A DNA stretch of 36,461 nt. Origin: Opitutia bacterium. Its GTDB lineage: Bacteria > Verrucomicrobiota > Verrucomicrobiia > Opitutales > UBA953. Positions 6,034-36,082 of the stretch are shown here, one piece after another. Every line of letters begins with the position of its first letter. Within the stretch, counting starts at the first letter, position 1. The notes beneath the pieces are model-generated. The model was not told the DNA's origin and did not search any database. It saw only the letters and a program-made list of their open reading frames with translations. Position numbers and translations under genes: made by a program. The stretch lies in NCBI GenBank assembly GCA_037129735.1, contig JBAXUJ010000001.1, positions 1-36,461 on the forward strand, read 5' to 3'.

Positions 6034-6037
6034 TATT

Positions 6038-7525: not shown

Positions 7526-7527
7526 AT

Positions 7528-20955: not shown

Positions 20956-22176
20956 GTGCGGATCCTGTATTTTCATCAACACTTCACCACTCCTAAGGGG
21001 TCGGGTGGCACGCGATCGTATGAGTTTGCCCAAGCTCTTATTAAACGTGGGCATCAAGTGACGATGGTCTGTGGTCAAATGGATCGCGATTCACTCAATT
21101 TACCGTTTGATGAAAAGAGGGGATGGTCGCGTGGGTTGATTGATGGCATTGATGTCATTGCCTTGCCCTTGCGCTATTCCAATCACGATGGGGTAGGCCG
21201 ACGCTTAATCACCTTTTTTAAATATGCGCTCAAGAGTATTAAAATCGCCCTCGATTTTGAATATGATGTAGTCTTTGCAACTTCGACACCCCTCACCGCT
21301 GCGTTGCCAGGAATTTTTGCTAGTTGGTTAAAAGGAAAGAAATTTATTTTCGAAGTTAGAGATTTATGGCCGGAACTGCCTCGTGCCATGGGAATGAAAA
21401 ATCCTATCCTTCTAGGCGGCATGTGGATTATTGAGGGCTGTGCTTATCGAGCATCTTCCGCTTGCGTTGGGTTATCACCAGGAATTGTACAGGGCATCCG
21501 TCATCGTTCCGCAAAAAATCATCCCATCGCTTTAATTCCCAATGGATGCGATCTCGAAATTTTTAAACCTCAGCCTAAGTCTAAAATAAAAATTGAGGGC
21601 ATTAAGGAGGGTGACTTTGTGGCGGGTTTTACCGGAGCTCATGGTAAAGCCAACGGGCTTGACGCCATTATTGAAGCGGCCCGAGAACTTAAAAAAAGAA
21701 ATATAAATCACATAAAGTTTCTCTTAATCGGTGATGGATCTGAAAAAGCACGTCTGCAGAAAGTGGCTACCAGCGAACAGCTCGATTGCATTATTTTCCA
21801 TCCCCCCATTTCAAAGCTAGCGCTCGCGCAAATTACGGCCCAGTTGGATTGTGGGCTAATGTTCCTAGATAATATACCTGCTTTTTATTACGGAACATCC
21901 CCTAATAAGTTCTTCGATTATATCTCAGCCGGTATACCTGTGATTAATAATTACCCCGGGTGGTTGGCTGAAATGATTACACAAAATCAGTGTGGAGTCG
22001 CGGTTCCGCCTAAAGACACGCACGCCCTGGTAAATTCTTTAATAAGGTTGTGTGATAGTCCGGACCAGTGTACTCAGATGGGGCAGTCCAGTCGTCAATT
22101 AGCCCAAGAAAATTTTTCACGATCACTTCTAGCTAACCAATTCTGCGAGTTCATAGACCAACAAGTCACCTCATAA
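20956..22176 (+). CDS. Glycosyltransferase family 4, WbuB-like
   Basis: The GTG start gives MRILYFHQHFTTPKGSGGTRSYEFAQALIKRGHQVTMV, the characteristic WbuB-type N-terminus. The C-terminal SPNKFFDYISAGIPVI is also present. Confidence 0.8.
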   Translation: MRILYFHQHFTTPKGSGGTRSYEFAQALIKRGHQVTMVCGQMDRDSLNLPFDEKRGWSRGLIDGIDVIALPLRYSNHDGVGRRLITFFKYALKSIKIALDFEYDVVFATSTPLTAALPGIFASWLKGKKFIFEVRDLWPELPRAMGMKNPILLGGMWIIEGCAYRASSACVGLSPGIVQGIRHRSAKNHPIALIPNGCDLEIFKPQPKSKIKIEGIKEGDFVAGFTGAHGKANGLDAIIEAARELKKRNINHIKFLLIGDGSEKARLQKVATSEQLDCIIFHPPISKLALAQITAQLDCGLMFLDNIPAFYYGTSPNKFFDYISAGIPVINNYPGWLAEMITQNQCGVAVPPKDTHALVNSLIRLCDSPDQCTQMGQSSRQLAQENFSRSLLANQFCEFIDQQVTS

Positions 22177-23189
22177 TGAGTTATTTACTAGAGCAAGTTT
22201 ACTTCATTTCAGATTCTGTACAATGGACTGAACTCCTAAAGTTTTTTGGGTATTCGGATATTTATCATACCTTTGAATATTCTAGTTTAGAGGCCGAGAG
22301 AATAGGTGGTATCGCTAACCTGATTATTATTAACTTACCTACTGGTATTATTGGATTGCCTGTTATTTTCAGAAAAGTCCCCAACGAAAGTCGATATATC
22401 GACGCCATATCCGTTTACGGATACAGCGGGGTTTTAACCTCTACGTCGCTCACTTCAGAGGATTTTTTATCTGGAATGAAAAAAATAAAAGCTGCGTTAG
22501 TTGAGCGAGACTGTGTCAGCCTTTTTAACCGAGAGTCTAATTTTACCCCCTATCGACTAACTGAATCTACAGAAGCAGGAAAAGTTTTAGCAGTAGATTT
22601 GATGCAAGATCCTGAACAATATGAAAAATCTCTAGCCGAGGGCCATCGTCAAGAAATCAAGGCTCTGCGTAAGTTGAACTACACTGTAGTCAAATCTGCC
22701 GAACCCAAAATCGTTGAGGATTTTCACGAAGTCTATGAACAGACTATGCTCCGACGTGGGGCCAAGATTAACTATTTTTTTAACGCAGTTTATTTTAATT
22801 CAGTATTAAAAATTCACTCGAGTATTCCAGACTTACGGGCGGTTTATCATGAAGGTAAAATGGCCGCTGGAGCAATTTTTATTACCCAAGGTGATCACAT
22901 GTATTATATGTTTTCGGGTACTGTTTTGGGTATTTCACGTTACCCGGCGATGAAACTAATTTTAGATCAGGTGATTCGCGAAAATTTAAATAATGGCAAA
23001 AAGCTACTTCATCTAGGGGGTGGTCTAGGTGGCAAACAAGATTCCTTATATCAATTTAAATTTGGTTTCGGAAAAGTAGTTTTGCCATTTTACACGACGC
23101 AATGGATTTTAATGCCGGAGGTGTATAATCGCCTGAGTGCTCATGTCTTAACGGACACCAGCTTCTTTCCTAGGTACCGTAGCGCTTAA
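22176..23189 (+). CDS. FemAB/GNAT-fold (BioF2-like) acyl- or aminoacyl-transferase
   Basis: 337 aa. The general layout and the C-terminal LHLGGGLGGKQDSLYQFKFGFG resemble FemAB-related proteins found in EPS and PEP-CTERM loci. TAATG overlap with the upstream GT4. Confidence 0.5.
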   Translation: MSYLLEQVYFISDSVQWTELLKFFGYSDIYHTFEYSSLEAERIGGIANLIIINLPTGIIGLPVIFRKVPNESRYIDAISVYGYSGVLTSTSLTSEDFLSGMKKIKAALVERDCVSLFNRESNFTPYRLTESTEAGKVLAVDLMQDPEQYEKSLAEGHRQEIKALRKLNYTVVKSAEPKIVEDFHEVYEQTMLRRGAKINYFFNAVYFNSVLKIHSSIPDLRAVYHEGKMAAGAIFITQGDHMYYMFSGTVLGISRYPAMKLILDQVIRENLNNGKKLLHLGGGLGGKQDSLYQFKFGFGKVVLPFYTTQWILMPEVYNRLSAHVLTDTSFFPRYRSA

Positions 23190-23235: not shown

Positions 23236-23541
23236 ATGATTACACGTTCACAAATTTTAGTTCTTATACTCAATCGCCTAAAGTCCTTGGGCGTTGAGTT
23301 GCAGAAGCCTGCGTTGATTGCGGCAACTGAACAAACTCGACTCTTTGGCGACAAGGCCGATCTCGATAGTATGGGATTAGTGACTTTAATTGCGGACCTT
23401 GAATATGACCTCCAACAAAACCTAGGACGCACCGTTTCTCTGGTAGACGAAAAAGCCATGAGTCGACTCACTTCACCGTTTCGCCGTGTCGATTATTTGG
23501 CGGATTATTTAGTAGAACTACTCAACGAGCCCAAATCTTAA
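23236..23541 (+). CDS. Acyl/peptidyl carrier protein (ACP-like)
   Basis: 101 aa. DLDSMGLVTLIADLE has the phosphopantetheine Ser motif (Ser45, nt 23368-23370), followed by an amphipathic helix. Confidence 0.65.
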   Translation: MITRSQILVLILNRLKSLGVELQKPALIAATEQTRLFGDKADLDSMGLVTLIADLEYDLQQNLGRTVSLVDEKAMSRLTSPFRRVDYLADYLVELLNEPKS

Positions 23542-23542
23542 A

Positions 23543-24235
23543 ATGCCTAATGCTATTATTACAGGAACTTCGCGCGGGCTCGGCCGTGCCCTAGCAGAAA
23601 AACTACTGAATGAGGGCTGGAAGGTTTGGGGATTTTCTCGGAGTCCATCGCCCATTAAACATGAACATTACTGCGAGCATTTAATCGACATTACCGATGA
23701 AGCCGCGGTGCAAAATGCTATTAGTCAGATCAGTCAAAGTTCATCAGATATTGATCTATTAGTGAATAATGCCGGTGCTGCCTCCATGAACGCTTTTTTA
23801 CTTACTCCTGCTAGAACTGCGGAAGCCTTGATGCGTCTCAATTATTTAGGGACCTTTCATTGTCTGCAGGCGGCGGGTAAGTTGATGGTTCGTCAACGTC
23901 ATGGTTTGGTTATTAATATTACAACGGTGGCGGTGCCCCTGGTGCTTGCAGGCGAAGCAGCTTATGCGGCGAGCAAAGCAGCGGTAGATTCGCTGACCAA
24001 AGTCACCGCCGAAGAATTTAAGTCACATGGCATCACGGTGATTGGTTTAGGGTTTGGACCGATGGACACGGATTTAATCAAAGCAGTGAATAAAGAAAAA
24101 ATTAACCAAATTAATCAGCGTATTAATCGCCCTGAGGGTACCACGTTAAACCAAGCGGTAGATTTTATTTTCGAACACCTAGACAAAAAATCCATCACCT
24201 CGGGCGATTTATATTATTTAGGCACAATTCCGTAG
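23543..24235 (+). CDS. Short-chain dehydrogenase/reductase (3-oxoacyl-ACP reductase-like)
   Basis: 230 aa. ITGTSRGLGRALA (TGxxxGxG), NNAG, YAASKAA (YxxxK). Starts 1 nt after the ACP stop. Confidence 0.85.
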   Translation: MPNAIITGTSRGLGRALAEKLLNEGWKVWGFSRSPSPIKHEHYCEHLIDITDEAAVQNAISQISQSSSDIDLLVNNAGAASMNAFLLTPARTAEALMRLNYLGTFHCLQAAGKLMVRQRHGLVINITTVAVPLVLAGEAAYAASKAAVDSLTKVTAEEFKSHGITVIGLGFGPMDTDLIKAVNKEKINQINQRINRPEGTTLNQAVDFIFEHLDKKSITSGDLYYLGTIP

Positions 24236-25579
24236 ATGAATTTTTGGTTACACGAGCGATTCAAAAAATTTAATACTAAGCCAGCCCTAGTCGGTACTTG
24301 GGGTGAGTTTTCGTATGCCGACTTGGCAAACTTAACCGAAAAAATCGAAAGTGAGTTTAAGGGCTTAGCTGGATCTGCACCGACAACGATTGGTTTAGTG
24401 GGGGACTGGTGTCCCGCTAGCGTTGCTTGGTTGGTCGCCTCCGAGCGTTTACAACACTGGGTTGTGCCGATGACAGATCACGCACAGGAGACCGCGGAAA
24501 AACTTAATCAAATTCATGCCCAGTGGGTGGTCATTACTGAGGGAGCAACTTGGAAAATTTATCCACGCGCAGCTGTCGGTAAATTAGAATTAGATAACGC
24601 CCAATCACTTCCGACATCACACGCAGGCTTAATTTTATTTTCTAGTGGTACGAGTGGTAGTCCGAAAGCGATGCTTCAGGATTTGAGTAACTTACTCAGT
24701 ACTTACGAGTCTCGGCATGAAAATTCCTTAATCATTTTGAGTTTACTCGGTTTTGATCATATCGGTGGTATTAACACATTGTTAGGAGGATTGGCCGCGG
24801 GTTCCCTCATGGTGATTCCCGAAAGTCGAGCCCCCGATCAAGTAGCAGCTATCATCAAAAAATATCACGTAGCGATTCTTCCCGCGACCCCCACTTTCCT
24901 GAATCTACTTTTACTGGCCGCCGCCGACCGCTTAACGGATTTAGCTTCACTCCGTTTAATTACTTATGGAACTGAACCGATGCCTGAGGCCTTGTTGGCT
25001 CGTCTACGTCAGGTGCTTCCCTCGGTTCGTTTAATTCAAACTTTTGGTACGACGGAAACAGGAATTTTAAAAACCGAGAGTCCCGACGGCGATTCCAATT
25101 TTTTAAAAATTAATGATCCCAATGTTGAGTGGAAAATAGTGAATGAAGAGTTGTGGCTAAAAACCCGTACACAGATTCGAGGATATTTAAATGCATCAAA
25201 CGAAAAATTCACAGACGATGGCTGGTTCATGACGGGCGATAAAGTGGAGGTTGGACCTAATAACACTCTACGAATTTTAGGACGCTCCGGTGAGATGATC
25301 AATGTCGGTGGACAAAAGTTAATGCCTACTGAAGTTGAGTCGGTCATCTTAAGTGTGCCAGGCGTAGTTGACTGCAGAGTCTTTGGAGAAAAAAATGCGA
25401 TGGTTGGTCAAACGGTCGCCGTTGATATTGTTGCTAGTGCCGGACAGAATTGGGAAACGTTACGCGCTTTAATCAGACAAACCTGTCGCCAAGCCCTATC
25501 CACCTACAAAGTGCCTACGCGATTGAACTTAGTGAGTGCGATTTCTACAAACCGCCTTAAAAAACAGAGAACGAGTTAA
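24236..25579 (+). CDS. AMP-dependent synthetase/ligase (adenylate-forming; acyl- or aminoacyl-carrier-protein ligase)
   Basis: 447 aa. LILFSSGTSGSPKAM (AMP-binding core), YGTEPMP, GWFMTGD, GRSGEMINVGGQKLMPTEVE. It is shorter than typical acyl-CoA synthetases. The start abuts the upstream stop. Confidence 0.85.
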   Translation: MNFWLHERFKKFNTKPALVGTWGEFSYADLANLTEKIESEFKGLAGSAPTTIGLVGDWCPASVAWLVASERLQHWVVPMTDHAQETAEKLNQIHAQWVVITEGATWKIYPRAAVGKLELDNAQSLPTSHAGLILFSSGTSGSPKAMLQDLSNLLSTYESRHENSLIILSLLGFDHIGGINTLLGGLAAGSLMVIPESRAPDQVAAIIKKYHVAILPATPTFLNLLLLAAADRLTDLASLRLITYGTEPMPEALLARLRQVLPSVRLIQTFGTTETGILKTESPDGDSNFLKINDPNVEWKIVNEELWLKTRTQIRGYLNASNEKFTDDGWFMTGDKVEVGPNNTLRILGRSGEMINVGGQKLMPTEVESVILSVPGVVDCRVFGEKNAMVGQTVAVDIVASAGQNWETLRALIRQTCRQALSTYKVPTRLNLVSAISTNRLKKQRTS

Positions 25580-25593
25580 AAGCCCGCAGCTCT

Positions 25594-26667
25594 ATGCAAA
25601 TAACACTCTCACATTTTCGTCTAGCTGGTTTGGCCGTTTCTACGGGGGCCGACAACCGAGACTATATAAAAGACGGACTGGCTCATGGCATCAGCCTCGC
25701 TCATTTAGAACGTGTCGCTAAAACAATCGGGCTAAAAGAACGCAAAGTAGCGTCAGCAGGTGTGACGGCGTTGGATTTATGTGAAGATGCTAGTCGTCGA
25801 CTTTTGGCTGCGATGGATATCGATGTCTCCACAATTGATGCCATTATTTTCGTCACCCAAACTCCTGATCATTCTCAGCCTAACAACGCATGTCTTTTGC
25901 ATGGTCGCTTGGGTTTAGCTAAATCTTCCATCGCTTTTGATTTATCGTTGGGTTGTTCGGGTTGGGTTTATGGACTTCATCAAGCGGGTTTACTTTGCGC
26001 CCATGGCGGGGCAGGGCGCGTTTTACTCTGTAGTGGTGATACCTTAAGTCGGTTAACTCATCCACAGGACCAGTCCATGAACCCTCTATTTGGTGATGCA
26101 GGCTCGGCCGCGATTGTAGAGCGTACAGGCTCTCACACTCCTTGGTATTTTGTTTTGGGGTCCGATGGAAAACTCTCCGCGACGATTAAAGTACCTGCAG
26201 GGGGCGCACGCTTACCGACTTCATCAGAAACTCGTGTAGAAAGTAAAGGCTCTAACGGTAATATTCACCACGCTGAAAATCTAATGATGGACGGCGCCGA
26301 GGTTTTTAATTTTTCACTTCGTGAAGTTCCCGCTGCTATCAATACAGTTATTAAAAACGCTCAGTGGAGTTTAACCGAGGTCGATGCATTGGTCTTACAC
26401 CAGGCTAATAAATTTATTATCGAAAATATTGCGACTAAGTGTGGATTAAAAGCTACTCACGTTCCGTCGAACTTAGTAGAGAAATACGGCAACCAAAGCT
26501 CGGCCTCTATTCCAGCCGCATTGATTGAGGGCCTAGGGGAGAAACTCGCTAACCGTTCGCAGAAAATTGTGGGCTGTGGATTTGGGGTAGGCTTGTCTTG
26601 GGCAGCTTTTGCCTCTGAGATCGGGCCAGTCATAACGTGTCCTATTCAGCCCTATCCTTTAAAATAA
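25594..26667 (+). CDS. 3-oxoacyl-ACP synthase III (FabH/KAS III family)
   Basis: 357 aa. Cys-His-Asn triad contexts: SLGCSGWVYGL, VLHQANKFIIENI, GNQSSASIP. Confidence 0.85.
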   Translation: MQITLSHFRLAGLAVSTGADNRDYIKDGLAHGISLAHLERVAKTIGLKERKVASAGVTALDLCEDASRRLLAAMDIDVSTIDAIIFVTQTPDHSQPNNACLLHGRLGLAKSSIAFDLSLGCSGWVYGLHQAGLLCAHGGAGRVLLCSGDTLSRLTHPQDQSMNPLFGDAGSAAIVERTGSHTPWYFVLGSDGKLSATIKVPAGGARLPTSSETRVESKGSNGNIHHAENLMMDGAEVFNFSLREVPAAINTVIKNAQWSLTEVDALVLHQANKFIIENIATKCGLKATHVPSNLVEKYGNQSSASIPAALIEGLGEKLANRSQKIVGCGFGVGLSWAAFASEIGPVITCPIQPYPLK

Positions 26668-26894
26668 TGTCGTTAACTTTCGAATCCCATCTTCAAGCAC
26701 TTCAAAAAGAAGTCGATGTACTTGTGGGAGTGTCACCCGATGCTCCCTTAAGCGGTCTGCCACAATGGGACTCACTGGCAATTTTATTAGTGATTTCTCA
26801 TTTTGAGTCTACTTACAAAATGAGTGTGACCGGAAAAGAAATTCGTCAGTGTAAAACCATTCGAGAACTTATTAAACTTATCCCTCAATCATGA
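26667..26894 (+). CDS. Second acyl carrier protein-like protein
   Basis: The track starts at 26637 inside the KAS III gene. ATG 26667 (TAATG overlap) gives a 75-aa protein with LPQWDSLAILLVISHFE (Ser36, nt 26772-26774). Confidence 0.6.
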   Translation: MSLTFESHLQALQKEVDVLVGVSPDAPLSGLPQWDSLAILLVISHFESTYKMSVTGKEIRQCKTIRELIKLIPQS

Positions 26895-27517
26895 AAAATC
26901 TTTTTATTGTCGGTGCTGGCGGATTTGGTCGCGAGGTTTATGCCTGGATCAAGCAACATCCTGAATTTAACAAGACTTGGGTTCTAGCTGGATTCTTGGA
27001 TGACAATCTCGAAGCCCTTAATCCTTTTGGTAATTTCGCCAATGTCTCAGTTTTAAAGAATCACCAAGTTTCACCCGCTAACGTTTATATCTGTGCCTTA
27101 GGACTCCCCCTGGTTAAATCGAAATTACTTGCTCCATTGATTGAGCAGAAGGCAGAGTTTATTTCTTTTATTCATCCGACGGCTGTCATCGGCGAAAGAG
27201 TAAAGATAGGTCGCGGAGTGGTTGTTTGCCCCGGAGCGAGTATTTCCGTGGATATTTCGATTGGCGATTTTTCTATGATTGGACCCAATACTACCATCGG
27301 ACATGATGGCACTATTGGCGCATGGTGTACGCTGTGTGCACAGTGCGATGTCACTGGTCGTGTTACCATTGGCGACGGAGTGTTTTTAGGAAGTCGGGTT
27401 TCCATTATACCCAGCAAAAAAGTTGGCCGTGGCTCTATTCTTGGTGCTGGTTCCGTGGTAATATCCGATGTCCCCGAGGGAGTGACGGTGGTCGGTAACC
27501 CCGCGCGTATTTTATAA
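26891..27517 (+). CDS. NeuD/PglD-family sugar N/O-acyltransferase (Rossmann-like N-domain plus LbH)
   Basis: 208 aa. LFIVGAGGFGREVYAWI...AGFLDD, then the hexapeptide repeats IHPTAVIGERVKIGRGVVVCPGASIS...VVGNPARIL. ATGA overlap with the ACP gene. Confidence 0.85.
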   Translation: MKNLFIVGAGGFGREVYAWIKQHPEFNKTWVLAGFLDDNLEALNPFGNFANVSVLKNHQVSPANVYICALGLPLVKSKLLAPLIEQKAEFISFIHPTAVIGERVKIGRGVVVCPGASISVDISIGDFSMIGPNTTIGHDGTIGAWCTLCAQCDVTGRVTIGDGVFLGSRVSIIPSKKVGRGSILGAGSVVISDVPEGVTVVGNPARIL

Positions 27518-27524
27518 ATCTCAT

Positions 27525-28253
27525 ATGAAAAAATTTATCTTATATTTTGGCGGGTTTTTATTACTAAGTATTTTTGCTTTAATCATTTATACGGAGTTTT
27601 TAAGTTCCCGTTCACGTCGCTTCACGGGAAGCTTGGAAAAAGTTTTACCACCCGACGGTTTTGACGGTTGGAAACGTGAATCTATTCCGCTGGGCGATTC
27701 AAATGCCGCCAAAGCTAATGTGCAGGGTATTTTAAATTACAGTCAGGCTGTTCAGTATTTATATACCAAAAATAAATCGCAGTTCCTCATCTATGTTGCC
27801 TATTGGGAGCCTTCTACTGTTTCCGTGGCGGATGTAGGAACGCATAACCCCGATTCTTGCTGGGTGAATAATGGCTGCACGAGAACTGACCGCGACTTTG
27901 CCGTCGCTGGAAAAGTGGGTTCACGCTTACTTCAGCCCTACGAATATGGACAATATATTACGCCGCGTGGTGATCGTCAGAATGTGTTATTTTGGCACCT
28001 AGTAAATGGGCAGCCTAATCGTTATGCGGATCAAGAACAAGGCTGGCGTGCTGGACTCAAGGGGCGCATGGAAAGACTTCCCTTGCTCATCAAAGACTTC
28101 AAAGAATTTGGACTTAACCAAAAAAACGAGCAGATGTTTATCCGTGTTTCCACCTTTTTACCCGTAAAAAATTTACTCGCTGATCCAGCGAACGAGAAAA
28201 TTTTTAATGCTTTAGAAGAAATTGGAATCTTTCAAAACCAAGCTTGGAAATAG
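27525..28253 (+). CDS. EpsI-family-like (DUF3485, exosortase-associated) membrane-anchored periplasmic protein
   Basis: 242 aa with an N-terminal TM. LPPDGFDGWKRESIPLG, LIYVAYWEPS...GTHNPDSCWVNNGC and VLFWHLVNG follow the pattern I recall for EpsI proteins (lP..GW.., vaYY.., H.P..ClpG.GW). Confidence 0.55.
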   Translation: MKKFILYFGGFLLLSIFALIIYTEFLSSRSRRFTGSLEKVLPPDGFDGWKRESIPLGDSNAAKANVQGILNYSQAVQYLYTKNKSQFLIYVAYWEPSTVSVADVGTHNPDSCWVNNGCTRTDRDFAVAGKVGSRLLQPYEYGQYITPRGDRQNVLFWHLVNGQPNRYADQEQGWRAGLKGRMERLPLLIKDFKEFGLNQKNEQMFIRVSTFLPVKNLLADPANEKIFNALEEIGIFQNQAWK

Positions 28254-28291: not shown

Positions 28292-29710
28292 ATGATTCCT
28301 TTATACGTTGATTTAGATGGCACCTTACTTCGTGGTGATTCCTTGCACGAGGCTTGCACCCGTCTACTTTTAAAGCCGAGCAAGTTTTTGAGCGTGGCTT
28401 TGTCGTTACTACGTGGAAAAGCTGCCTTTAAACAAAAAGTAATCGAATCCGTTGAGCTCCCCGCCGCAACATTGCCTTATCGCCATGATTTTATTGAATG
28501 GCTTAAAATACAAAAAGCATCTGGCCGTAAACTCATTTTAGCCACTGGAGCTGACCGTGAAATTGCCACACGTGTTGCGGAATATTTAAATCTTTTCGAC
28601 GAGGTCTTGGCTAGCGAGGGGAAGATTAACATTACCGGAGGAAATAAATTAGATGTCATTAAAGCACATGCTGGAAATCAGCCTTTTGCCTATGCTGGCA
28701 ATGACACCATTGACCTGATTATTTGGAATGAATGCGCTTCGGTTGTTCTAGTGGGGGATGGTGTTAAATATGTTAAAAAAATTAAACCCTCCGTCCTTAT
28801 CGAAAAACAATTTTCTGATGAGGTTAACAAACCCGCTAAAATCCTGAAGTTATTACGTCCGCATCAATGGGTAAAAAATATATTAATTTTCCTACCTGCC
28901 GCCGCTGCTCATCAGCTAACTTCACTGCCGATTATAAAATCAGACTTAGCCTTATTCGCAGCCTTTTCACTCTGTGCCTCAGGTGTTTATGCCGCCAATG
29001 ATTTATTAGATTTACCGAGTGATCGAAAGCACGCTCATAAGCATAATCGTCCTTTAGCTTCAGGTGCTGTCAGCATTCCTGTAGGTTTATTTTTAGCGAT
29101 AACGCTTCCTGTGGCTGGTTTAATCACTGCAACCTACACGGTGGGCTGGGGTGCCACAGCCATGGTAGCTTCCTATTGGATTATTACTACCTATTACTCC
29201 TTCAGTGGTAAACGCGTGCCGCTCTTAGATGTTTTTCTCCTTGCTGGACTTTATACATTCAGAGCGGTTGCCGGGTCCTTGCCGATTAATTCAGGTATGT
29301 CCGAGTGGATGGCTGCCTTCTTGCTCTTTTTATTTTTCAGTTTGGCATGTCTCAAACGCTTTTCTGAATTATTAAATTTACCTGCTAATCAAAACGAAAA
29401 AATAGCTGGTCGTGGTTACATCAGAGAAGATTACCAATTAATGGCGCTACTAGGAGTCGGATCGGCGTTCGCCTCAACTTTGGTTGTTTGCCTCTACGCT
29501 GCTAGTCCCTCGGTGACTGGACTTTATGCCAAGCCATTTTATTTAATGGCGATAGCTCCCTTGGTGTTATTCGGCTTGGCGCGCTTTTGGCTGCAAGCTT
29601 GGCGTGGCGAGTTGCACAACGATCCCGTAGTCCATGCCTTAAAAGATGGAACATCATACCTATTGATCCTGTTGTCTGCCCTAGCCATGTTGGCAGCAAC
29701 AAGCCTATAA
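28292..29710 (+). CDS. HAD-IB phosphatase domain fused to a UbiA-family polyprenyl-phosphate phosphoribosyltransferase (DPPR synthase-like)
   Basis: 472 aa. N-terminus MIPLYVDLDGTLLRGDS (HAD motif I) ...GNDTIDL. The C-terminal ~290 aa have 8-9 TM helices with YAANDLLDLPSDRKHAHKHNRPLASG (NDxxDxxxD; nt 28996-29022), very like Rv3806c-type enzymes. Confidence 0.8.
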   Translation: MIPLYVDLDGTLLRGDSLHEACTRLLLKPSKFLSVALSLLRGKAAFKQKVIESVELPAATLPYRHDFIEWLKIQKASGRKLILATGADREIATRVAEYLNLFDEVLASEGKINITGGNKLDVIKAHAGNQPFAYAGNDTIDLIIWNECASVVLVGDGVKYVKKIKPSVLIEKQFSDEVNKPAKILKLLRPHQWVKNILIFLPAAAAHQLTSLPIIKSDLALFAAFSLCASGVYAANDLLDLPSDRKHAHKHNRPLASGAVSIPVGLFLAITLPVAGLITATYTVGWGATAMVASYWIITTYYSFSGKRVPLLDVFLLAGLYTFRAVAGSLPINSGMSEWMAAFLLFLFFSLACLKRFSELLNLPANQNEKIAGRGYIREDYQLMALLGVGSAFASTLVVCLYAASPSVTGLYAKPFYLMAIAPLVLFGLARFWLQAWRGELHNDPVVHALKDGTSYLLILLSALAMLAATSL

Positions 29711-29714
29711 ATTT

Positions 29715-31070
29715 ATGCCAGATAACCTTATAGCCGGTTGGGGAAATTTGCCTATTTCAAATGCCGAGGTGAAAACACCTGATACTGACCTTGGTCTTTC
29801 CAACCAAGTATCATCGGGTTCGCAGTTTATAAGTCGTGGGCTTGGTCGTGCCTATGGTGATGCAGCTTTACCCTCAAAAGAGAGCGGCGCGGTCATAAGC
29901 GGACTTGGGCTAAAAAGATTTTTATCTTTTGATGAGTCTTCGGGTATTTTAGTCGCTGAGTCGGGCGTTAGCTTGGCCGAAATAATAAAAGTTTTTTTAC
30001 CTCGGGGATGGTTTCTTCCCACCGTGCCTGGCACAAAATTTGTTACTTTAGGCGGAGCGGTGGCTGCAGATATACACGGAAAAAACCATCATATCGACGG
30101 CACGCTGGGTGTTCACGTGGTCTGGCTTGATCTGGTTATTGCCAATGGGGAAACCCTCCAATGCTCGCCTTCCCAAAATGTAGATATTTTTCGGGCTACA
30201 GTGGGTGGCATGGGTTTAACTGGTCATATCATCCGTGTGGCCATTCGCCTTCGTCGTGTCCCTAGCGCCTATTGCAAAGTTAGATATATCAAAAGTAAGA
30301 ACCTTGCTCACACCCTTTCTCTGCTGTCCGAGCATGATGTAAATTATCGTCACACAGTCGCATGGATGGACTGTCTGGCCAGTGAGGAAAAATTAGGCCG
30401 TGGGGTTTTAATGTTAGGCAATGAAGCAGAAACAACGGATTTATCTCAATCACAGCTAAAATCCGGACCACATAAGTTACCCAATCGCCCACAGCTTTCG
30501 GTACCCTTTAATTTCCCCTCCTGGTTTCTGGGTAATACTTTTGTCAGTATTTTTAATTTTCTCTTCTATGGTTTGGCTAAAAATACGGTAAAGATTGTAG
30601 ATTACGAAAAATTCTTTTTTCCACTGGATACAATAAAACACTGGAATCGAATTTATGGTCGTCGGGGCTTCGTTCAGTTCCAAGCCTATTTTCCTGATGC
30701 CACGGCAGAAAAAGGCTTACAAGAGTGTCTTGAGGCAATCAGTCGAGTAGGCTTAGCATCGTTTTTGGCCGTATTAAAGCGTTCAGGCAAAGCGAATGAA
30801 TTTCCGTTATCTTTTTTAGATAAAGGCTATACCTTGGCTTTAGACATACCGGGTGACCCCAAAAAACTTCCGCTATTGATGAACGAACTAGATGCTATTC
30901 TAGCAAAATATAACGGCAGAATTTATTTTGCTAAAGATGCCATGGTGAATCCGGATTTAATCCCTACCATGTATCCAGGACTCAATGAATTTAAGCGTAT
31001 CAAGGCTTCGGTAGATCCCAAGGGGCTTATTCAATCACGTCTTTCTAAGAGACTCCATTTACATGACTAA
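29715..31070 (+). CDS. DprE1-like FAD-dependent polyprenylphospho-ribose 2'-oxidase
   Basis: 451 aa. GWGN, RGLGRAYGDAAL, LPTVPGTKFVTLGGAVAADIHGKNHH, TVGGMGLTGHI, FFFPLDTIKHWNRIYGRRGF, RIYFAKD. Collinear with M. tuberculosis DprE1 as I recall it. Confidence 0.85.
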   Translation: MPDNLIAGWGNLPISNAEVKTPDTDLGLSNQVSSGSQFISRGLGRAYGDAALPSKESGAVISGLGLKRFLSFDESSGILVAESGVSLAEIIKVFLPRGWFLPTVPGTKFVTLGGAVAADIHGKNHHIDGTLGVHVVWLDLVIANGETLQCSPSQNVDIFRATVGGMGLTGHIIRVAIRLRRVPSAYCKVRYIKSKNLAHTLSLLSEHDVNYRHTVAWMDCLASEEKLGRGVLMLGNEAETTDLSQSQLKSGPHKLPNRPQLSVPFNFPSWFLGNTFVSIFNFLFYGLAKNTVKIVDYEKFFFPLDTIKHWNRIYGRRGFVQFQAYFPDATAEKGLQECLEAISRVGLASFLAVLKRSGKANEFPLSFLDKGYTLALDIPGDPKKLPLLMNELDAILAKYNGRIYFAKDAMVNPDLIPTMYPGLNEFKRIKASVDPKGLIQSRLSKRLHLHD

Positions 31071-31791
31071 ACTAAAAGCTGTTCTTATTGTTGGGGCAAC
31101 CTCACCGATTGCACGGGCCTATGCGGACCGATGTGCTCAAGCGGGACACCCTTTAATCCTGGCGGGCCGTGATTTAAAAGAAATCAATAGCACGGCTAGT
31201 GATTTAGCGATTCGCTATGAAGTTAAAACAGACGTAGTATTTTACAACGCCGCTGAACAAGGGGCAGGAGTATCGCTTGCCAAACAAGCTTTAGCCCAAG
31301 ATCTCGCCAGCGTGGTTGTATTTCATGGTATTATGGTTGGCCGTGAAGGCTTCTCGGAAATGTTGCAGATTAACTGCGGCTCGATTGCAGAATTATTTGA
31401 AGCGCTGATTGATGGTGCTGTAGCATCTAATCAAAAGCCCACTTTGGCTGCGGTATCCTCTGTGGCCGGAGATCGTGGTCGCCAATCTAATTATCCCTAT
31501 GGTGCATCTAAAGCTGCTCTGGATGCCTATTTATCGGGTTTAAGAAATCGTGCCTATCCACTGGGTATCAATGTCATCACCATTAAGCCTGGTTTCGTGC
31601 GAACCCGTCTCACTGAAGGAAAAGTAAATCCGAAATCACCCTTACTAGCTTCACCTGAAAAAGTGGCTGGAGATATTTTTAATGCCGTTCAGTCGGGTCG
31701 TAGTATTTGTTACACTCCCTGGTTCTGGGCTTATATTATGTGTATTATTCGTTCTATTCCGGAGTTTATTTTTAAAAGGCTGAAACTGTGA
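31063..31791 (+). CDS. DprE2-like SDR (polyprenylphospho-2'-keto-pentose reductase)
   Basis: 242 aa. VGATSPIARAYA, YGASKAAL, KPGFVRTRL, and the C-terminal tail WFWAYIMCIIRSIPEFIFKRLKL resembling the Rv3791 tail. 8-nt overlap with the DprE1-like gene. Confidence 0.75.
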   Translation: MTKLKAVLIVGATSPIARAYADRCAQAGHPLILAGRDLKEINSTASDLAIRYEVKTDVVFYNAAEQGAGVSLAKQALAQDLASVVVFHGIMVGREGFSEMLQINCGSIAELFEALIDGAVASNQKPTLAAVSSVAGDRGRQSNYPYGASKAALDAYLSGLRNRAYPLGINVITIKPGFVRTRLTEGKVNPKSPLLASPEKVAGDIFNAVQSGRSICYTPWFWAYIMCIIRSIPEFIFKRLKL

Positions 31792-32189
31792 TTACGGCCA
31801 CCCAGATTTTTTGGCGGTATTTATTGTTCTGTTTATTAGCGATCATCGCTAATTTAGGGCTCCAAGCGATTGCCCACGAAATAGTGCACACGCCTGATTG
31901 GTTTTCCATGGGAATAGGAACCGCCGGGGGCCTAGTTTTAAAATATATCTTAGATAAAAATTTCATTTTTTTCGCAGAAAAAACTACGGCCGTGCGAGAT
32001 TTCAAACGTTTTGTTATTTATACTCTCTTTGGTCTACTGACGACATTCCTCTTTTGGTCTACCGAATGGGCCTTTATTAAACTTTGGGCTCATCCCTTCT
32101 CGCGCTATTGCGGCGGAGTTATCGGTTTGTCTCTAGGATACTATATTAAATATAACTTAGACCGAAAGTGGGTTTTTAAAATTATCTAA
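31788..32189 (+). CDS. GtrA-family small membrane protein (putative lipid-linked sugar translocase)
   Basis: 133 aa with a GTG start (GTGA overlap) and 4 TM helices. KYILDKNFIFF and KYNLDRKWVFK are the GtrA-family half-repeat endings. Confidence 0.75.
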   Translation: MITATQIFWRYLLFCLLAIIANLGLQAIAHEIVHTPDWFSMGIGTAGGLVLKYILDKNFIFFAEKTTAVRDFKRFVIYTLFGLLTTFLFWSTEWAFIKLWAHPFSRYCGGVIGLSLGYYIKYNLDRKWVFKII

Positions 32190-32198
32190 TCTTAAGCC

Positions 32199-33284
32199 AT
32201 GTTTTCCAAATTCAAAAAAAATTTTTTAGTATTTTCAGTTTTCTGGCTTGTGGCGTCAGCTACTTATTCCGGCTTTATTGCGAAGTGGGGTTTGAGGGAC
32301 TCGCCCCAGGATTATAAATATAACTTAGAAAAAATGCTAGATGGTACTGCTTATAAACCCTTTGTTTACAGACAGCTACTTCCGTCGTCGGCAAACTTTA
32401 TAGGCAATAATACACCCGAAAATTTTATAAATTTAGTAAATGAAAAATATAAATACGGGCCTTTTAGAGATTATGCTTTTTCCAGTAGTCTGATTGGAGC
32501 TCCAGCTAAATATAAATTTAAGTGGCTTATTGTATATTGGATGGGCTTTGGTATGTTGCTGGGATCTTTATACATAATACGTGGCATTCTTTCTGACCTT
32601 GGTCTTAGCCCTTTAGCTGCTGTTTTTGCTCCGTGTATATTTAGCCTATGTATGCCCATTATCCAAACCGGTGGGGGCTACGTATATGATTATAGCGAAC
32701 TCTTTTTTATGTCTTTAGCGGTCTATTTGACACAAAAGAATCGCCCCGTGCTACTCTTGCTTGTTGTTGCTTTAGCCACCTTTAATAAAGAATCATTTAT
32801 ATTTTTCCTACCTGCTCTTTACCCATTTTTACCTAAGTCCGAGCTGATAAGTAAAACACACTTTTTTTATGGGCTACAGTTTTTATTTTCAGCCTGCATA
32901 AATTTATGGATAAAAAATATCTATAGTGGCAACGAAGGTAAAATGCTAGAAATCTGGTTCACGACAAACATCCAAAATTATCTTAATCCTATTACTTATT
33001 TAAAATTTGATGGGTCTTACGGTTTACTTGCGCCTAAAGGTTTTAACATACTTACTGTTTTGTTAATTTTAATTTTAATTAAAATATCATGGAAATATTT
33101 AGACCCAAAATTGCAGAAGCATTGTTTAATCGCCTTTTTTATTAATTTCCCTCTCTTTATCATCCTTGGGTTTTATAATGAGATTCGAGGTTTAAGTCTT
33201 CTCTATATATCATTAACTTTTTTAATTGCTTATGCTATCGACAACTACGGCAAGGAATTTCCTTCAGAGCCTTTAAAGATATAA
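32199..33284 (+). CDS. Polytopic membrane protein; candidate GT-C-type transferase using the lipid-linked pentofuranose donor
   Basis: 361 aa with about 9-10 TM helices and no signature I recognise. Very AT-rich. It occupies the position held by arabinofuranosyltransferases next to GtrA/DprE1/DprE2 in mycobacteria. Confidence 0.35.
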   Translation: MFSKFKKNFLVFSVFWLVASATYSGFIAKWGLRDSPQDYKYNLEKMLDGTAYKPFVYRQLLPSSANFIGNNTPENFINLVNEKYKYGPFRDYAFSSSLIGAPAKYKFKWLIVYWMGFGMLLGSLYIIRGILSDLGLSPLAAVFAPCIFSLCMPIIQTGGGYVYDYSELFFMSLAVYLTQKNRPVLLLLVVALATFNKESFIFFLPALYPFLPKSELISKTHFFYGLQFLFSACINLWIKNIYSGNEGKMLEIWFTTNIQNYLNPITYLKFDGSYGLLAPKGFNILTVLLILILIKISWKYLDPKLQKHCLIAFFINFPLFIILGFYNEIRGLSLLYISLTFLIAYAIDNYGKEFPSEPLKI

Positions 33285-33299
33285 AAGTTTTCAATAATT

Positions 33300-34427
33300 A
33301 TGAAAAAAATCTATTTATCTGCGCCTGATATCGGTAAACTTGAGCAGGTCTACGTGAATGAGGCCTTTGCCACCAATTGGGTGGCTCCTGTGGGTCCTCA
33401 CATCGATGCCTTCGAAAGAGAATTTTCTCAGGTCGTTGGAACGAAGTATGCCGTCGCGTTATCTTCAGGCACGGCCGCTTTACACTTAGCACTCCGCCTG
33501 GCTGGGGTGACAGCGGGTGACGAAGTTTTGTGCTCTTCGCTCACGTTCATTGCTTCCGCTGCTCCGATTACTTACTTGGGCGCCCATCCAGTATTTATTG
33601 ATTCCGATGAAGTCAGTTGGAATATGGATCCCGCTTTAGCTATTGAAGTTATAGAGAAAAAGGTGCGCGCTGGTAAAACTCCTAAGGCGCTCGTCTTAGT
33701 TCACTTGTATGGACAATCCGCCGATACCCAACCGATTAAGGAGTGCTGCGATAAGCACGGCATTAAACTCATTGAGGACGCCGCCGAGGCCCTTGGAGCT
33801 ACTTATAAGAGCGGTACACCAGGTTCAATGGGTTGGGCCGGAATTCACTCCTTTAATGGTAATAAAATTATCACCACGTCAGGAGGCGGTATGCTGGTCA
33901 CGAATGACGAGAAATTAGCGACAACCGCCCGATTTTTATCCACCCAAGCTCGCGATCCAGCTCCACATTATCAACACACGACGATTGGTTATAATTATCG
34001 TATGAGTAATATTTGTGCGGGTATTGGTCGTGGTCAATTAAGTGAGCTCGGCAAGAAGGTGGCGCGACGCCGAGCGCACTTCGCCGCTTATCAAGAAGCA
34101 TTTAAAACTTTTCCTGGTGTAGCGATGCAACCCGAGGCGTCTTGGGGTAAATCCACCCATTGGTTAACCTGTTTAACAGTCGATCCAAGCAAGTCGCCAG
34201 TATCCCGTGAAGAGGTTAGACTGGCTTTAGAAAAAGAAGATATTGAAAGCCGGCCGATCTGGAAGCCCTTACACCTTCAGCCCGTATTTGCTCAAGCTGA
34301 GTATCATGGTCGTGGGGTGAGTGATAGAATTTTCGAACAAGGCTTATGTGTTCCGTCGGGCTCAGGTATGTCGGACAGCGAGCGCAATCGCGTCATTGAT
34401 TCGACGGTGAAACTGTTTGCTAAATAA
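33300..34427 (+). CDS. DegT/DnrJ/EryC1-family PLP sugar 4-aminotransferase (PglE/EpsN-like)
   Basis: 375 aa. KIYLSAPDIGKLEQVYVNEAFATNWVAPVGPHIDAFEREF..ALSSGTAALHLAL...FNGNKIITTSGGGML (PLP Lys context). Close to the B. subtilis EpsN N-terminus as I recall it. Confidence 0.9.
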   Translation: MKKIYLSAPDIGKLEQVYVNEAFATNWVAPVGPHIDAFEREFSQVVGTKYAVALSSGTAALHLALRLAGVTAGDEVLCSSLTFIASAAPITYLGAHPVFIDSDEVSWNMDPALAIEVIEKKVRAGKTPKALVLVHLYGQSADTQPIKECCDKHGIKLIEDAAEALGATYKSGTPGSMGWAGIHSFNGNKIITTSGGGMLVTNDEKLATTARFLSTQARDPAPHYQHTTIGYNYRMSNICAGIGRGQLSELGKKVARRRAHFAAYQEAFKTFPGVAMQPEASWGKSTHWLTCLTVDPSKSPVSREEVRLALEKEDIESRPIWKPLHLQPVFAQAEYHGRGVSDRIFEQGLCVPSGSGMSDSERNRVIDSTVKLFAK

Positions 34428-34504: not shown

Positions 34505-35440
34505 CTATCTACCTAAATTTTGACGAAAGTACGCCAACGATTTTTCCAGGCCTTCACGGAGTTGAATTTTGGGTTCCCAGTGATTTAAAAGTTCTTTTGC
34601 CTTATCGATATTGGGGCAGCGTTGCTTGGGGTCATCCACGGGCAGGGGATTGAACACGATGGGTAGTTTGGATCCGACCAGCGCTTGGACTTTTTCGGCG
34701 AGTTCGAGCATGGTGAACTCATTGGGATTACCGAGATTGATGGGTCCTGGATTAGAGGGCAGGGCGAGTACACGAACAAATCCCTCAATAAGATCGTCCA
34801 CATAGCAGAAGGAGCGGGTTTGTTGTCCGGTTCCATACACGGTGAGTGCCTGGCCTTTCAGCGCCTGTAGGATGAAATTCGTCACTACGCGTCCATCATC
34901 ATCACGCATGTAAGGTCCGTAGGTGTTAAAGATGCGAACTAGACGTGCATCCACTCGCCCTAACCGCTGGAAGTCGGCACACAGGGTCTCGGCGGCACGT
35001 TTACCTTCGTCGTAACAAGCCCGAGGCCCGATTGGATTTACATTTCCGACATAGTTTTCTGACTGAGGGTGAACGAGGGGGTCGCCGTAAATTTCTGAGG
35101 TCGAAGCCTGCAGCAGACGGGCCTTATAGCGCTCCGCATTATCGAGCGCATTAAGCATGCCTAATACAGAAATACGCAGCGTATAAACGGGGTCGCGTTG
35201 ATAATGAGGTGGTGACGCCGGGCAGGCTAAATTACAAAGCACATCACACGAAATATCATAGGGGTTAACCACGTCATGTTCAATGAAGCTAAACCGTGGA
35301 TTCTTTTGTAATAAAGCGATGTTCGATTTGCTACCGGAGTGAAAGTTGTCGAGTCCAATGACCTCGTGTCCGTCAGACAGTAAGCGTAATGCTAGATTGG
35401 TACCTAAAAACCCTGCCGCTCCAGTGATGAGGTACTTCAT
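34505..35440 (-). CDS. UDP-glucuronate decarboxylase (UDP-xylose synthase, UXS-like SDR)
   Basis: 311 aa. ITGAAGFLGTNLALRLLSDGHEVIGLDNFHSGSKSNI, STSEIYGDP, CYDEGKRAAETL (UXS-type YxxxK context), RIFNTYGP. Confidence 0.85.
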   Translation of the reverse strand: MKYLITGAAGFLGTNLALRLLSDGHEVIGLDNFHSGSKSNIALLQKNPRFSFIEHDVVNPYDISCDVLCNLACPASPPHYQRDPVYTLRISVLGMLNALDNAERYKARLLQASTSEIYGDPLVHPQSENYVGNVNPIGPRACYDEGKRAAETLCADFQRLGRVDARLVRIFNTYGPYMRDDDGRVVTNFILQALKGQALTVYGTGQQTRSFCYVDDLIEGFVRVLALPSNPGPINLGNPNEFTMLELAEKVQALVGSKLPIVFNPLPVDDPKQRCPNIDKAKELLNHWEPKIQLREGLEKSLAYFRQNLGR

Positions 35441-35476: not shown

Positions 35477-36082
35477 TTACTTAGCGTCACCCTCAAACTC
35501 TTCCATGGTAGCTGCCTTACTTGAATTAATATTGCTACGATTTAGGACGACAAAAAAAGTTCTTACGACGATTTTAAGATCCAACCAAAAGCTACTGTTA
35601 TCGATGTATGAAACATCGAGCGCAAATTTCTCATCCCAACTGATGGCGTTGCGGCCATTGATTTGGGCTAAACCCGTGACGCCTGGTTTCATTTCCATGC
35701 GTCGCGCCTGAAATTTATTATAGCGTGGTAAATAGCGCATCATTAAAGGGCGTGGGCCGACGACGCTCATATCTCCGATGAGCACATTCCACATTTCGGG
35801 AAATTCATCGAGCGTGGTGGATCGCAAAAATTTGCCAAAGGTGGTCAGGCGTACTTCGTCAGACAGTAGATTTCCTGCTTCGTCTCTGGCATCTGTCATG
35901 GTTCGGAATTTTACCATACGAAAGGGCTTCGCGTCTTTACCGGGGCGCTCTTGAATAAAGAAAATGGGTGAGCCGAGTTTAATCCGTACTAAAACTCCAA
36001 CGACGATTAAGAGTGGCGAAAACCCGATGAGCCAAGCCAGCGAAAAAATAATATCGAAGGCTCTTTTGAAAAAATGATACAT
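35477..36082 (-). CDS. Small monotopic phosphoglycosyl transferase (PglC/EpsL-type bacterial sugar transferase), initiating enzyme
   Basis: 201 aa. KRAFDIIFSLAWLIGFSPLLIVVGVLVRIKLGSPIFFIQERPGKDAKPFRMVKFRTM, DEFPEMWNVLIGDMSVVGPRP, KPGVTGLAQINGRN. Confidence 0.92.
   Translation of the reverse strand: MYHFFKRAFDIIFSLAWLIGFSPLLIVVGVLVRIKLGSPIFFIQERPGKDAKPFRMVKFRTMTDARDEAGNLLSDEVRLTTFGKFLRSTTLDEFPEMWNVLIGDMSVVGPRPLMMRYLPRYNKFQARRMEMKPGVTGLAQINGRNAISWDEKFALDVSYIDNSSFWLDLKIVVRTFFVVLNRSNINSSKAATMEEFEGDAK

Follow-up and report, generated by a model that had tools for sequence, protein, structure and literature searches.

The window analyzed here, a stretch of 36,461 nt from contig JBAXUJ010000001.1 of an Opitutia bacterium (all coordinates refer to it), is a large surface-polysaccharide locus of an Opitutales bacterium, and encodes glycosyltransferases, a Wzy-like polymerase, WecB, and Ugd. 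It contains a cassette of six consecutive genes that, in the reading we hold with moderate confidence, specifies a two-module carrier pathway in which a short oxygenated acyl group is built and attached to a bacillosamine-type nucleotide sugar at its 4-amino position. With good confidence, the cassette can be said more broadly to make the N-acyl group of the amino sugar. Module A consists of a divergent relative of acyl carrier proteins (ACP1), a short-chain dehydrogenase/reductase (SDR), and a short adenylate-forming ligase; module B consists of a KAS III enzyme, a second carrier (ACP2), and a left-handed beta-helix (LbH) sugar N-acyltransferase. The cassette is not a new kind of system: it extends an existing idea, the published ACP/KAS III/PglD-type N-acylation, by a widespread and unexplained acid-loading module.

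A previous reading of the window, made from the sequence alone, had described six genes that overlap or are separated by 0–14 nt. Their open reading frames (ORFs), coordinates, and junctions were all confirmed, with every gene on the + strand (Table 1); in gene order, the first three junctions are gaps of 1, 0, and 14 nt, and the last two are overlaps of 1 and 4 nt. The stop codon of KAS III and the start of ACP2 overlap as TAATG, the ATG at 26667 sharing its A with TAA. The longest ORF for ACP2 begins further upstream, at GTG 26637, and encodes 85 aa; because the orthologs are annotated at 75–76 aa and an ATG overlaps the KAS III stop, we assign the gene to the shorter model. ACP2 is translationally coupled to both KAS III and the LbH transferase. 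These genes are found together again in dozens of other genomes, so the arrangement is not a chance run of ORFs. Promoter- and terminator-like sites between 22000 and 28500 are no commoner than in shuffled sequence, and therefore no operon boundaries can be drawn.

Table 1. Genes of the six-gene cassette and the associated sugar-pathway genes in the window.
Feature	Position	Strand	Description
ACP1	23236-23541	+	101 aa; divergent free-standing carrier-like protein, candidate Ser45 in LDSMGL; first gene of module A
SDR1	23543-24235	+	230 aa; classical FabG-type short-chain dehydrogenase/reductase; module A
Ligase	24236-25579	+	447 aa; short adenylate-forming, AMP-binding and AMP-binding_C; module A
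KAS III (FabH-like)	25594-26667	+	357 aa; ACP_syn_III and C-terminal domain; first gene of module B
ACP2	26667-26894	+	75 aa; Ser36 in WDSL; module B
LbH sugar N-acyltransferase	26891-27517	+	208 aa; NeuD/PglB/VioB family; module B
EpsI-like protein	27525-28253	+	242 aa; weak matches
DegT aminotransferase, PglE/LegC-like	33300-34427	+	DegT_DnrJ_EryC1, E=2e-98
PglC-type polyprenyl-phosphate phosphoglycosyl transferase	35477-36082	-	201 aa; Bac_transf, E=8e-63

An exact-sequence search with the window ligase matched no contig, and near relatives were therefore used for comparison. Among species-representative genomes, a scan identified about 350 with a relative of the ligase, and the best 80 were compared with the window proteins (loci are designated by L-numbers); the order of module A was testable in 65 of these loci, and 24 loci were fully flanked. 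ACP1, SDR, and ligase are contiguous in that order in 62 of the 65 testable loci. Module B, formed by KAS III, ACP2, and LbH, is usually followed in the Opitutae by the EpsI-like gene and a PglE/LegC-like DegT. KAS III is found no farther than 10 kb from the ligase in 20 of the 24 fully flanked loci, and KAS III and LbH both are in 17. The two modules adjoin each other in the window and in close relatives of it, in distant Verrucomicrobiota (L001, L011, and L012, with ligases 57–58% identical), in Campylobacterota (L061, L064, L066, and L073), in an Alphaproteobacterium (L067), and in Roseivirga (L077 and L078). The cassette, which the sequence-only reading had treated as one six-gene unit, is thus made of two separable sub-modules. 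Its proposed link to a sugar pathway was supported: in L001 (ligase 57% identical), the EpsI-like gene, DegT, and a small phosphoglycosyl transferase come immediately after the six genes, and the DegT of the window is PglE-like.

The cassette also occurs in a different glycan setting. In the Arcobacteraceae locus L073 (8060–18009), a flagellin gene is followed by a seven-gene version of the cassette, with a second SDR (SDR2) inserted between ACP2 and LbH, and then by genes for NeuB, a xylose-isomerase-like TIM barrel, a CBS-DegT fusion, and a CMP-transferase. Because this cassette sits between flagellin and NeuB/DegT/CMP-transferase genes, the same acyl unit appears to be attached to different amino-sugar pathways, and the locus predicts an N-acylated nonulosonic acid on Arcobacteraceae flagellin.

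To judge from sequence, ACP2 is the more ordinary small carrier of the two. It scores 19.4 bits against the PP-binding model (PF00550), for a cut-off of 20.8, and two orthologs exceed the cut-off (L073, 24.0 bits; L086, 21.8 bits). Both Trp34 and Ser36 are invariant in all 39 orthologs, and the 75-aa gene model retains the serine that the sequence-only reading had singled out in WDSL. ACP1 is best described, on the strength of its predicted fold, as a divergent carrier-like protein. An AlphaFold2 model (pLDDT 87.1, pTM 0.81) is a helical bundle in which Ser45 begins the long second helix (residues 45–63), and the top Foldseek matches in the PDB are nearly all acyl or peptidyl carrier proteins (e.g., MacpD, prob 0.99; PltL, TM 0.64/0.70), with E-values of 0.056 or weaker. 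Ser45 is present in 69/69 orthologs; among 46 representatives sharing 32–52% identity, Ser45 (in LDS[LMI]GLV), Glu56, and Ser80-Pro81-Phe82 are invariant. The family is large, with 955 representatives at E<=1e-10 and 2,562 at E<=0.001, and has no Pfam model; its members are ~95–110 aa long and almost exclusively free-standing.

The ligase carries all core motifs of the ANL enzymes, i.e., the P-loop SSGTSGSPKA, FGTTETG, TGD, GR..INVGG.K, and the C-terminal Lys442/443; the P-loop, FGT[ST]ETG, TGD, and Lys442/443 are conserved among orthologs. The closest relatives of both the ligase and ACP1 come from metagenome-assembled genomes of freshwater Opitutales, at 84–91% identity. The best relatives of the ligase are acyl- and aryl-CoA ligases, but it fits no named substrate-specific ANL subfamily, all 100 NCBIfam matches falling far under their cut-offs (e.g., exosortase-associated TIGR03098, 103.9 vs 592 bits; MenE, 125.5 vs 330). 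Its best PDB relative, 4-chlorobenzoate:CoA ligase, aligns over residues 125–443 only, and the residues of the window ligase read off by hand at its pocket positions (Leu153, His175, Pro216, Gly245, Thr269, Gly271, and Gly276) are too indirect a guide to the substrate. The PDB relatives of the ligase and of KAS III (4-chlorobenzoate:CoA ligase and structural-genomics KAS III entries) are generic and do not inform on substrate. The ligase is predicted to load a free acid onto ACP1.

The SDR matches adh_short with E=3e-41 and scores 116 bits against the 3-oxoacyl-ACP reductase model TIGR01830, under its cut-off. Tyr141 and Lys145 are found in 71/71 orthologs, and the NNAG motif is invariant or nearly so. 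Compared with the two SDRs of L073, the window protein is 38% identical to SDR1, which belongs to module A (E=2e-50), and 22% identical to SDR2, which lies beside ACP2 (E=2e-7); by this comparison, it is the ortholog of the loading-module SDR1 and not of the module-B ketoreductase SDR2. That the SDR reduces the product of KAS III is therefore assumed, and this product may be 3-oxo or 3-hydroxy. SDR1 may act on the ACP1-bound starter, the 3-oxoacyl product, or both.

In module B, the KAS III scores 228.1 bits against PRK09352 (cut-off 249) and 187.9 against TIGR00747 (cut-off 292.1); since both FabH cut-offs are missed, the enzyme is classed as a specialized KAS III and not as the housekeeping FabH. 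Its best PDB matches are Burkholderia KAS III structures (4efi and 3gwa, E=1e-61). The LbH transferase, described earlier as NeuD/PglD-type, does pass the curated NeuD/PglB/VioB model TIGR03570 (177.6 vs 160.8-bit cut-off), with a PglD_N domain at residues 3–80 and Hexapep repeats after it. Its best PDB matches are VioB (7txp, E=5e-27, aligned end to end), 4m9c, the perosamine N-acetyltransferase 4ea7, and 4m98. A histidine in a GHD motif, His138, is present in 41/41 orthologs and is equated with the catalytic histidine of PglD by motif only. LpxA and LpxD, found among the weaker PDB matches, are similar in being left-handed beta-helix enzymes that take an (R)-3-hydroxyacyl group from ACP; unlike them, the window transferase belongs to the PglD_N-containing NeuD/PglB/VioB family, and its product would be a short sugar N-acyl group and not a lipid.

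The acceptor for this transferase would be supplied by DegT. Its best PDB matches are 1o61 and 4ztc (Campylobacter jejuni PglE), with E=2.5e-85, and it scores 377.7 bits against the LegC family, under the 420-bit cut-off; on this similarity, it is predicted to make the 4-amino sugar acceptor. The phosphoglycosyl transferase would then use the N-acylated sugar. It is 77–82% identical to its counterparts in distant loci (L001, L002, L011, and L012), where it lies beside DegT. Aminotransferase, LbH transferase, and phosphoglycosyl transferase together make up a PglE/PglD/PglC-like trio. The EpsI-like gene next to LbH has weak matches (NF045609, 17.5 bits; PF11984, weakly in L001); it is present in 16 of the 24 fully flanked loci, invariably after the LbH gene in the Opitutae, and stands directly beside DegT in L001, L010, L011, and L012. 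An exosortase was not detected anywhere in the window.

Hydroxyacyl N-substituents such as 3-hydroxybutanoyl and 3,5-dihydroxyhexanoyl, carried on bacillosamine, viosamine, and nonulosonic acids, shape the antigenicity of O-antigens, capsules, and flagellins. A possible parallel is the rfbK-rfbO set of Vibrio cholerae O1 for the tetronate N-acyl group of perosamine. Located in an O-antigen locus, it reportedly comprises an ACP, an adenylate-forming ligase, reductases, and a hexapeptide acyltransferase, and is reported to have been proposed to make a hydroxylated C4 acyl group for a 4-amino sugar. That set is not known to include a KAS III, and its reductases are reportedly of other kinds (an iron alcohol dehydrogenase and a LuxC/LuxE-like protein).

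Two published systems come closer. The viosamine island of Pseudomonas syringae pv. tabaci contains vioA (aminotransferase), vioS (KAS III), vioB (acetyltransferase), vioR (3-oxoacyl-ACP reductase), and acp (Yamamoto et al. 2011, PMC3927599). The flagellin sugar of P. syringae is 4-(3-hydroxybutanamido)-viosamine; vioA, vioB, vioT, and vioR mutants lose N-(3-hydroxybutanoyl)viosamine, and deletion of vioR removes the flagellin sugar (PMC3927599). Going by the published gene lists, this island resembles the window in having a KAS III, a small dedicated ACP, and a NeuD/PglB/VioB transferase beside a DegT 4-aminotransferase, and its 4-amino-4,6-dideoxyhexose is like the sugar predicted here; its 3-oxoacyl-ACP reductase has a FabG-type counterpart in the window SDR, which is however of the loading-module type. 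It differs in that no adenylate-forming ligase or second carrier is mentioned (PMC3927599), and in making a flagellin glycan on a dTDP sugar, as opposed to the polysaccharide repeat unit of the window. The authors sketched an extension on the sugar after acetylation, and not an assembly on the carrier (PMC3927599).

The second system is the O-polysaccharide locus of Flavobacterium psychrophilum, in which wfpB-wfpG encode a PglC homolog (WfpB, 200 aa), two KAS III, a 76-aa ACP, FabG, and a PglD homolog, accompanied by pglE and pglF (Cisar et al. 2019, PMC6519341). The PglD homolog was predicted to move an acyl group from the locus-specific ACP to UDP-Qui2NAc4NH2, and the R1 group of Qui2NAc4NR was established by NMR as 3,5-dihydroxyhexanoyl (PMC6519341). 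By published gene lists, the likeness to the window extends to the PglC-type transferase (WfpB is in the equivalent place), KAS III, small ACP, and PglD homolog. F. psychrophilum has two KAS III, one ACP, a FabG-type reductase, and no ligase, whereas the window has one KAS III, two carriers, a ligase, and a FabG-type SDR that belongs to the loading module. Taken together, one KAS III goes with a C4 product (P. syringae) and two with a C6 product (F. psychrophilum) (PMC3927599, PMC6519341).

Module A, too, has counterparts in the literature. A trio of ACP, 3-oxoacyl-ACP reductase, and AMP-dependent synthetase genes lies next to pse genes in 98 Aeromonas strains (PMC7874193), and similar trio genes are found in enterobacterial flagellin islands (PMC4875605); in both cases, the authors read them only as 'fatty acid synthesis / liposugar' (PMC7874193, PMC4875605). 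By gene description, these trios have the order of module A and lie inside a glycan locus by nonulosonic-acid genes.

We found no paper joining modules A and B, and no biochemical test of an acyl-ACP-dependent PglD-type enzyme, in a literature search that was thin on subscription journals. The core idea, namely that an ACP, a KAS III, and a reductase feed a PglD/VioB homolog, is already published. The sequence-only reading therefore overrates the novelty of the route, which had already been proposed for P. syringae (PMC3927599) and F. psychrophilum (PMC6519341), where the N-hydroxyacyl products are chemically known. What is new is the combination of modules A and B, and its wide spread.

In the pathway we propose, the ligase would adenylate a small free acid and load it onto holo-ACP1, and the module-A SDR could reduce or oxidize a group on this starter. 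KAS III would take the starter on Cys121 and condense it with malonyl-ACP2, for which a housekeeping malonyl transferase would supply the malonyl group, giving a 3-oxoacyl-ACP2 two carbons longer. The 3-oxo group would then be reduced by the same SDR or by a housekeeping FabG, or left as it is. The PglD/VioB-family transferase would pass the acyl chain on ACP2 to the amino group that the PglE/LegC-like aminotransferase introduces, and the small PglC-type transferase would start the repeat unit by transferring the N-acyl sugar phosphate to the lipid carrier. This is largely the sequence of starter loading, KAS III extension, SDR reduction, and transfer set out in the sequence-only reading; the genomic context supports it, but the reduction step is weakened by the orthology of the SDR to SDR1.

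A sharper version of this scheme, which we put forward tentatively, is a miniature primed synthase, in which a non-acetate starter comes from ligase, ACP1, and SDR and undergoes a single extension by KAS III on ACP2, while the donor used by the PglD-family enzyme is holo-ACP2 itself and not CoA. Two-carrier modules around a KAS III are the established logic for priming type II polyketide synthases with non-acetate starters; the window product would differ in being a short sugar N-acyl group and not an aromatic polyketide. Replacement of the acetyl-CoA primer by a dedicated starter fits the seven-gene versions of the cassette, since these amount to the P. syringae-like set (KAS III, ACP, SDR2, and LbH) plus module A. 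With low confidence, a route to 3,5-dihydroxyhexanoyl can be drawn, in which acetoacetate or 3-hydroxybutyrate is placed on ACP1, reduced if needed, and extended once, so that module A replaces the first KAS III of F. psychrophilum.

If true, the primed-synthase scheme would make the window transferase the first NeuD/PglD/VioB-family enzyme with a biochemically defined dependence on acyl-ACP, and would provide a general starter-unit logic for the diversity of glycan N-acyl groups in hundreds of species, from Verrucomicrobiota capsules to Arcobacter flagellin sugars; it would also predict N-acyl groups not yet described. In the literature searched, the making and delivery of such groups have so far been deduced from gene lists only. 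Members of the large, unmodelled family of ~100-aa carrier-like proteins are found together with a short ligase and an SDR, the three forming a portable unit for acid loading that in several phyla is joined to the known KAS III/ACP/PglD-type set. Uncharacterized N-acyl sugars are accordingly predicted in many environmental Verrucomicrobiota and Campylobacterota, and the six soluble proteins of the window form a compact set for asking about donor type, starter acid, and reductase roles.

Several observations weigh against the two-module pathway. All five of its steps are deduced from genes, here as in the published precedents. The structurally characterized relatives of the LbH transferase use acyl-CoA (acetyl-CoA in PglD), and gene neighborhood is the sole basis for proposing acyl-ACP as the donor. 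The window has no ortholog of the module-B reductase SDR2. ACP1 finds no match in Pfam or NCBIfam, the PP-binding model included, and PP-binding is reached weakly by just 4 of 20 family members (best E=0.01 in a Pfam scan). The ACP1 profile matches the PDB at E=1 only, which is not significant, and shows no significant similarity to ACP2 (hhalign prob 1.4%). Because these PDB, Pfam, and ACP2 comparisons are all non-significant, the assignment of ACP1 as a carrier rests on fold and motif. A PglF/PseB-type 4,6-dehydratase was not found in the window, nor in the 4.5 kb past the phosphoglycosyl transferase in a near relative (L010), so that the acceptor sugar is identified by similarity alone. At 35–41% identity, the ligase still follows a ~100-aa small ORF on Rhizobium, Burkholderia, and Bacillus plasmids, in non-glycan contexts.

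The arrangement of the modules also counts here. In many Opitutae loci, A and B lie 1.5–6 kb apart with ordinary glycan genes between them; considered as candidates for acyl tailoring, these intervening genes were identified instead as glycosyltransferases, an FkbM-type methyltransferase, and an AsnB-like enzyme. The two modules are divergent in L063, L072, L079, and L080. Module A occurs without KAS III in L054 (with a GNAT gene following), in L086 (with ACP2 and LbH only), and in L087 (beside a phosphoglycosyl transferase), and the Aeromonas trio is followed by luxE and luxC, and not by KAS III, ACP2, and LbH (PMC7874193).

These arrangements are what would be expected if A and B were independent acylation systems that share a locus, an explanation we regard as the main rival, though a rather unlikely one. 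Module B alone would convert acetyl-CoA and malonyl-ACP2 to acetoacetyl-ACP2, which LbH would transfer with or without reduction; indeed, P. syringae and F. psychrophilum do without a ligase or a second carrier. Module A would load another acid for another transferase, e.g., the FemAB/Acetyltransf_6-like (or GNAT-like) protein encoded at 22176–23189, directly upstream of ACP1. A FemAB-like gene precedes ACP1 also in L003, L004, L008, and L009 and, at 34–35% identity, in L013, L015, L035, and L040, and its product could be a second transferase tied to the ligase module. However, the FemAB-like gene is adjacent in a minority of loci only, and in L086 the ligase module adjoins ACP2 and LbH with no other transferase between. 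Furthermore, independence accounts poorly for the contiguity of A and B on the same strand in at least three phyla, for the 0–14-nt gaps in the window, and for the proximity of KAS III to the ligase in most of the fully flanked loci.

A second explanation accepts the linkage of the modules and makes KAS III non-condensing: it would hand the ligase-loaded acyl group of ACP1 on to ACP2 or straight to the sugar, and the final group would be the unextended starter. KAS III-like acyltransferases do exist in secondary metabolism, the window enzyme falls under the NCBIfam FabH cut-offs, and L086, with ACP1-SDR-ligase and ACP2-LbH but no KAS III, implies that extension is not obligatory. On the other hand, the triad reported in the sequence-only reading is intact, in a protein with both KAS III domains, and is conserved in nearly all orthologs (Cys121 in 46/46, His269 and Asn300 each in 45/46). 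The function of His and Asn is in malonyl decarboxylation, and a pure acyltransferase would be under no pressure to keep them; moreover, KAS III gene number tracks product length in the two published systems. Condensation is therefore favored over plain acyl transfer, which had been offered as an alternative and which we consider improbable.

Still less probable is a Dlt-like ligase that places an amino acid on ACP1, leading to N-aminoacylation of the sugar. N-aminoacyl amino sugars occur in bacterial glycans, the short ligase is always paired with a small carrier, and a FemAB-like gene is nearby. This alternative, also raised in the sequence-only reading, is disfavored by the A4 motif of the ligase, the invariant GFDHIGG. 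Its His175 aligns with His207 of 4-chlorobenzoate:CoA ligase, whereas amino-acid-activating domains have an Asp at this site, through which the alpha-amino group is bound. In addition, the best NCBIfam and PDB relatives are acyl-/aryl-CoA ligases and not DltA, and the coupled FabG-type SDR and KAS III would have no obvious role on an aminoacyl group.

The least probable explanation, a lipid or secondary-metabolite pathway unrelated to sugars, could appeal to distant ligase/ACP1 pairs beside a polyketide synthase (Burkholderia) or a halogenase (Rhizobium), but every survey locus that keeps KAS III and LbH has genes of glycan synthesis or flagellin glycosylation around it (DegT with a phosphoglycosyl transferase, or NeuB), the LbH transferase passes a curated sugar-acyltransferase cut-off, and the window as a whole is a polysaccharide locus. 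What those distant units do show is that the pair of small ORF and ligase is portable. One, in which the small ORF and ligase (with or without the SDR) lie beside a CmlS-like halogenase, is on a Rhizobium plasmid (L005, 7040–14659); another, on a Burkholderia plasmid (L006, 8712–17781), is beside a ~2,100-aa SDR-annotated protein that is polyketide synthase-like by size. Given such neighbors, the loading module seems to be used outside glycan pathways as well.

Other genes of the window bear on further sugars of the polysaccharide. A 311-aa SDR at 34505–35440 (− strand) was considered as the missing 4,6-dehydratase and is a UDP-glucuronate decarboxylase instead (E=7e-103 to human UXS1). A UDP-glucose dehydrogenase is encoded at 1970–3325; with both enzymes present, the locus likely makes UDP-xylose too. 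Between the EpsI-like gene and DegT, five genes in a row (28292–33284) encode a HAD+UbiA fusion (472 aa), a FAD_binding_4 oxidase (451 aa), an SDR (242 aa, overlapping the oxidase gene by 8 nt), GtrA (133 aa), and a 361-aa polytopic membrane protein with a weak match to the AZOBR_p60025 glycopolymer family. This block resembles a donor pathway of the polyprenyl-phospho-arabinofuranose type (DprE1/DprE2-like) with a membrane transferase, and is absent from L001, L010, L011, and L012. Four large ORFs (439–607 aa; 3376–4854, 7519–8838, 8866–10353, and 10350–12173) are without a Pfam or NCBIfam match. Lastly, the region 4978–7525 encodes a 351-aa CMP-transferase-like protein and a NeuB homolog with a C-terminal cupin, both well under the Pse/Neu cut-offs, and an unusual ulosonic acid may also be made in the locus.

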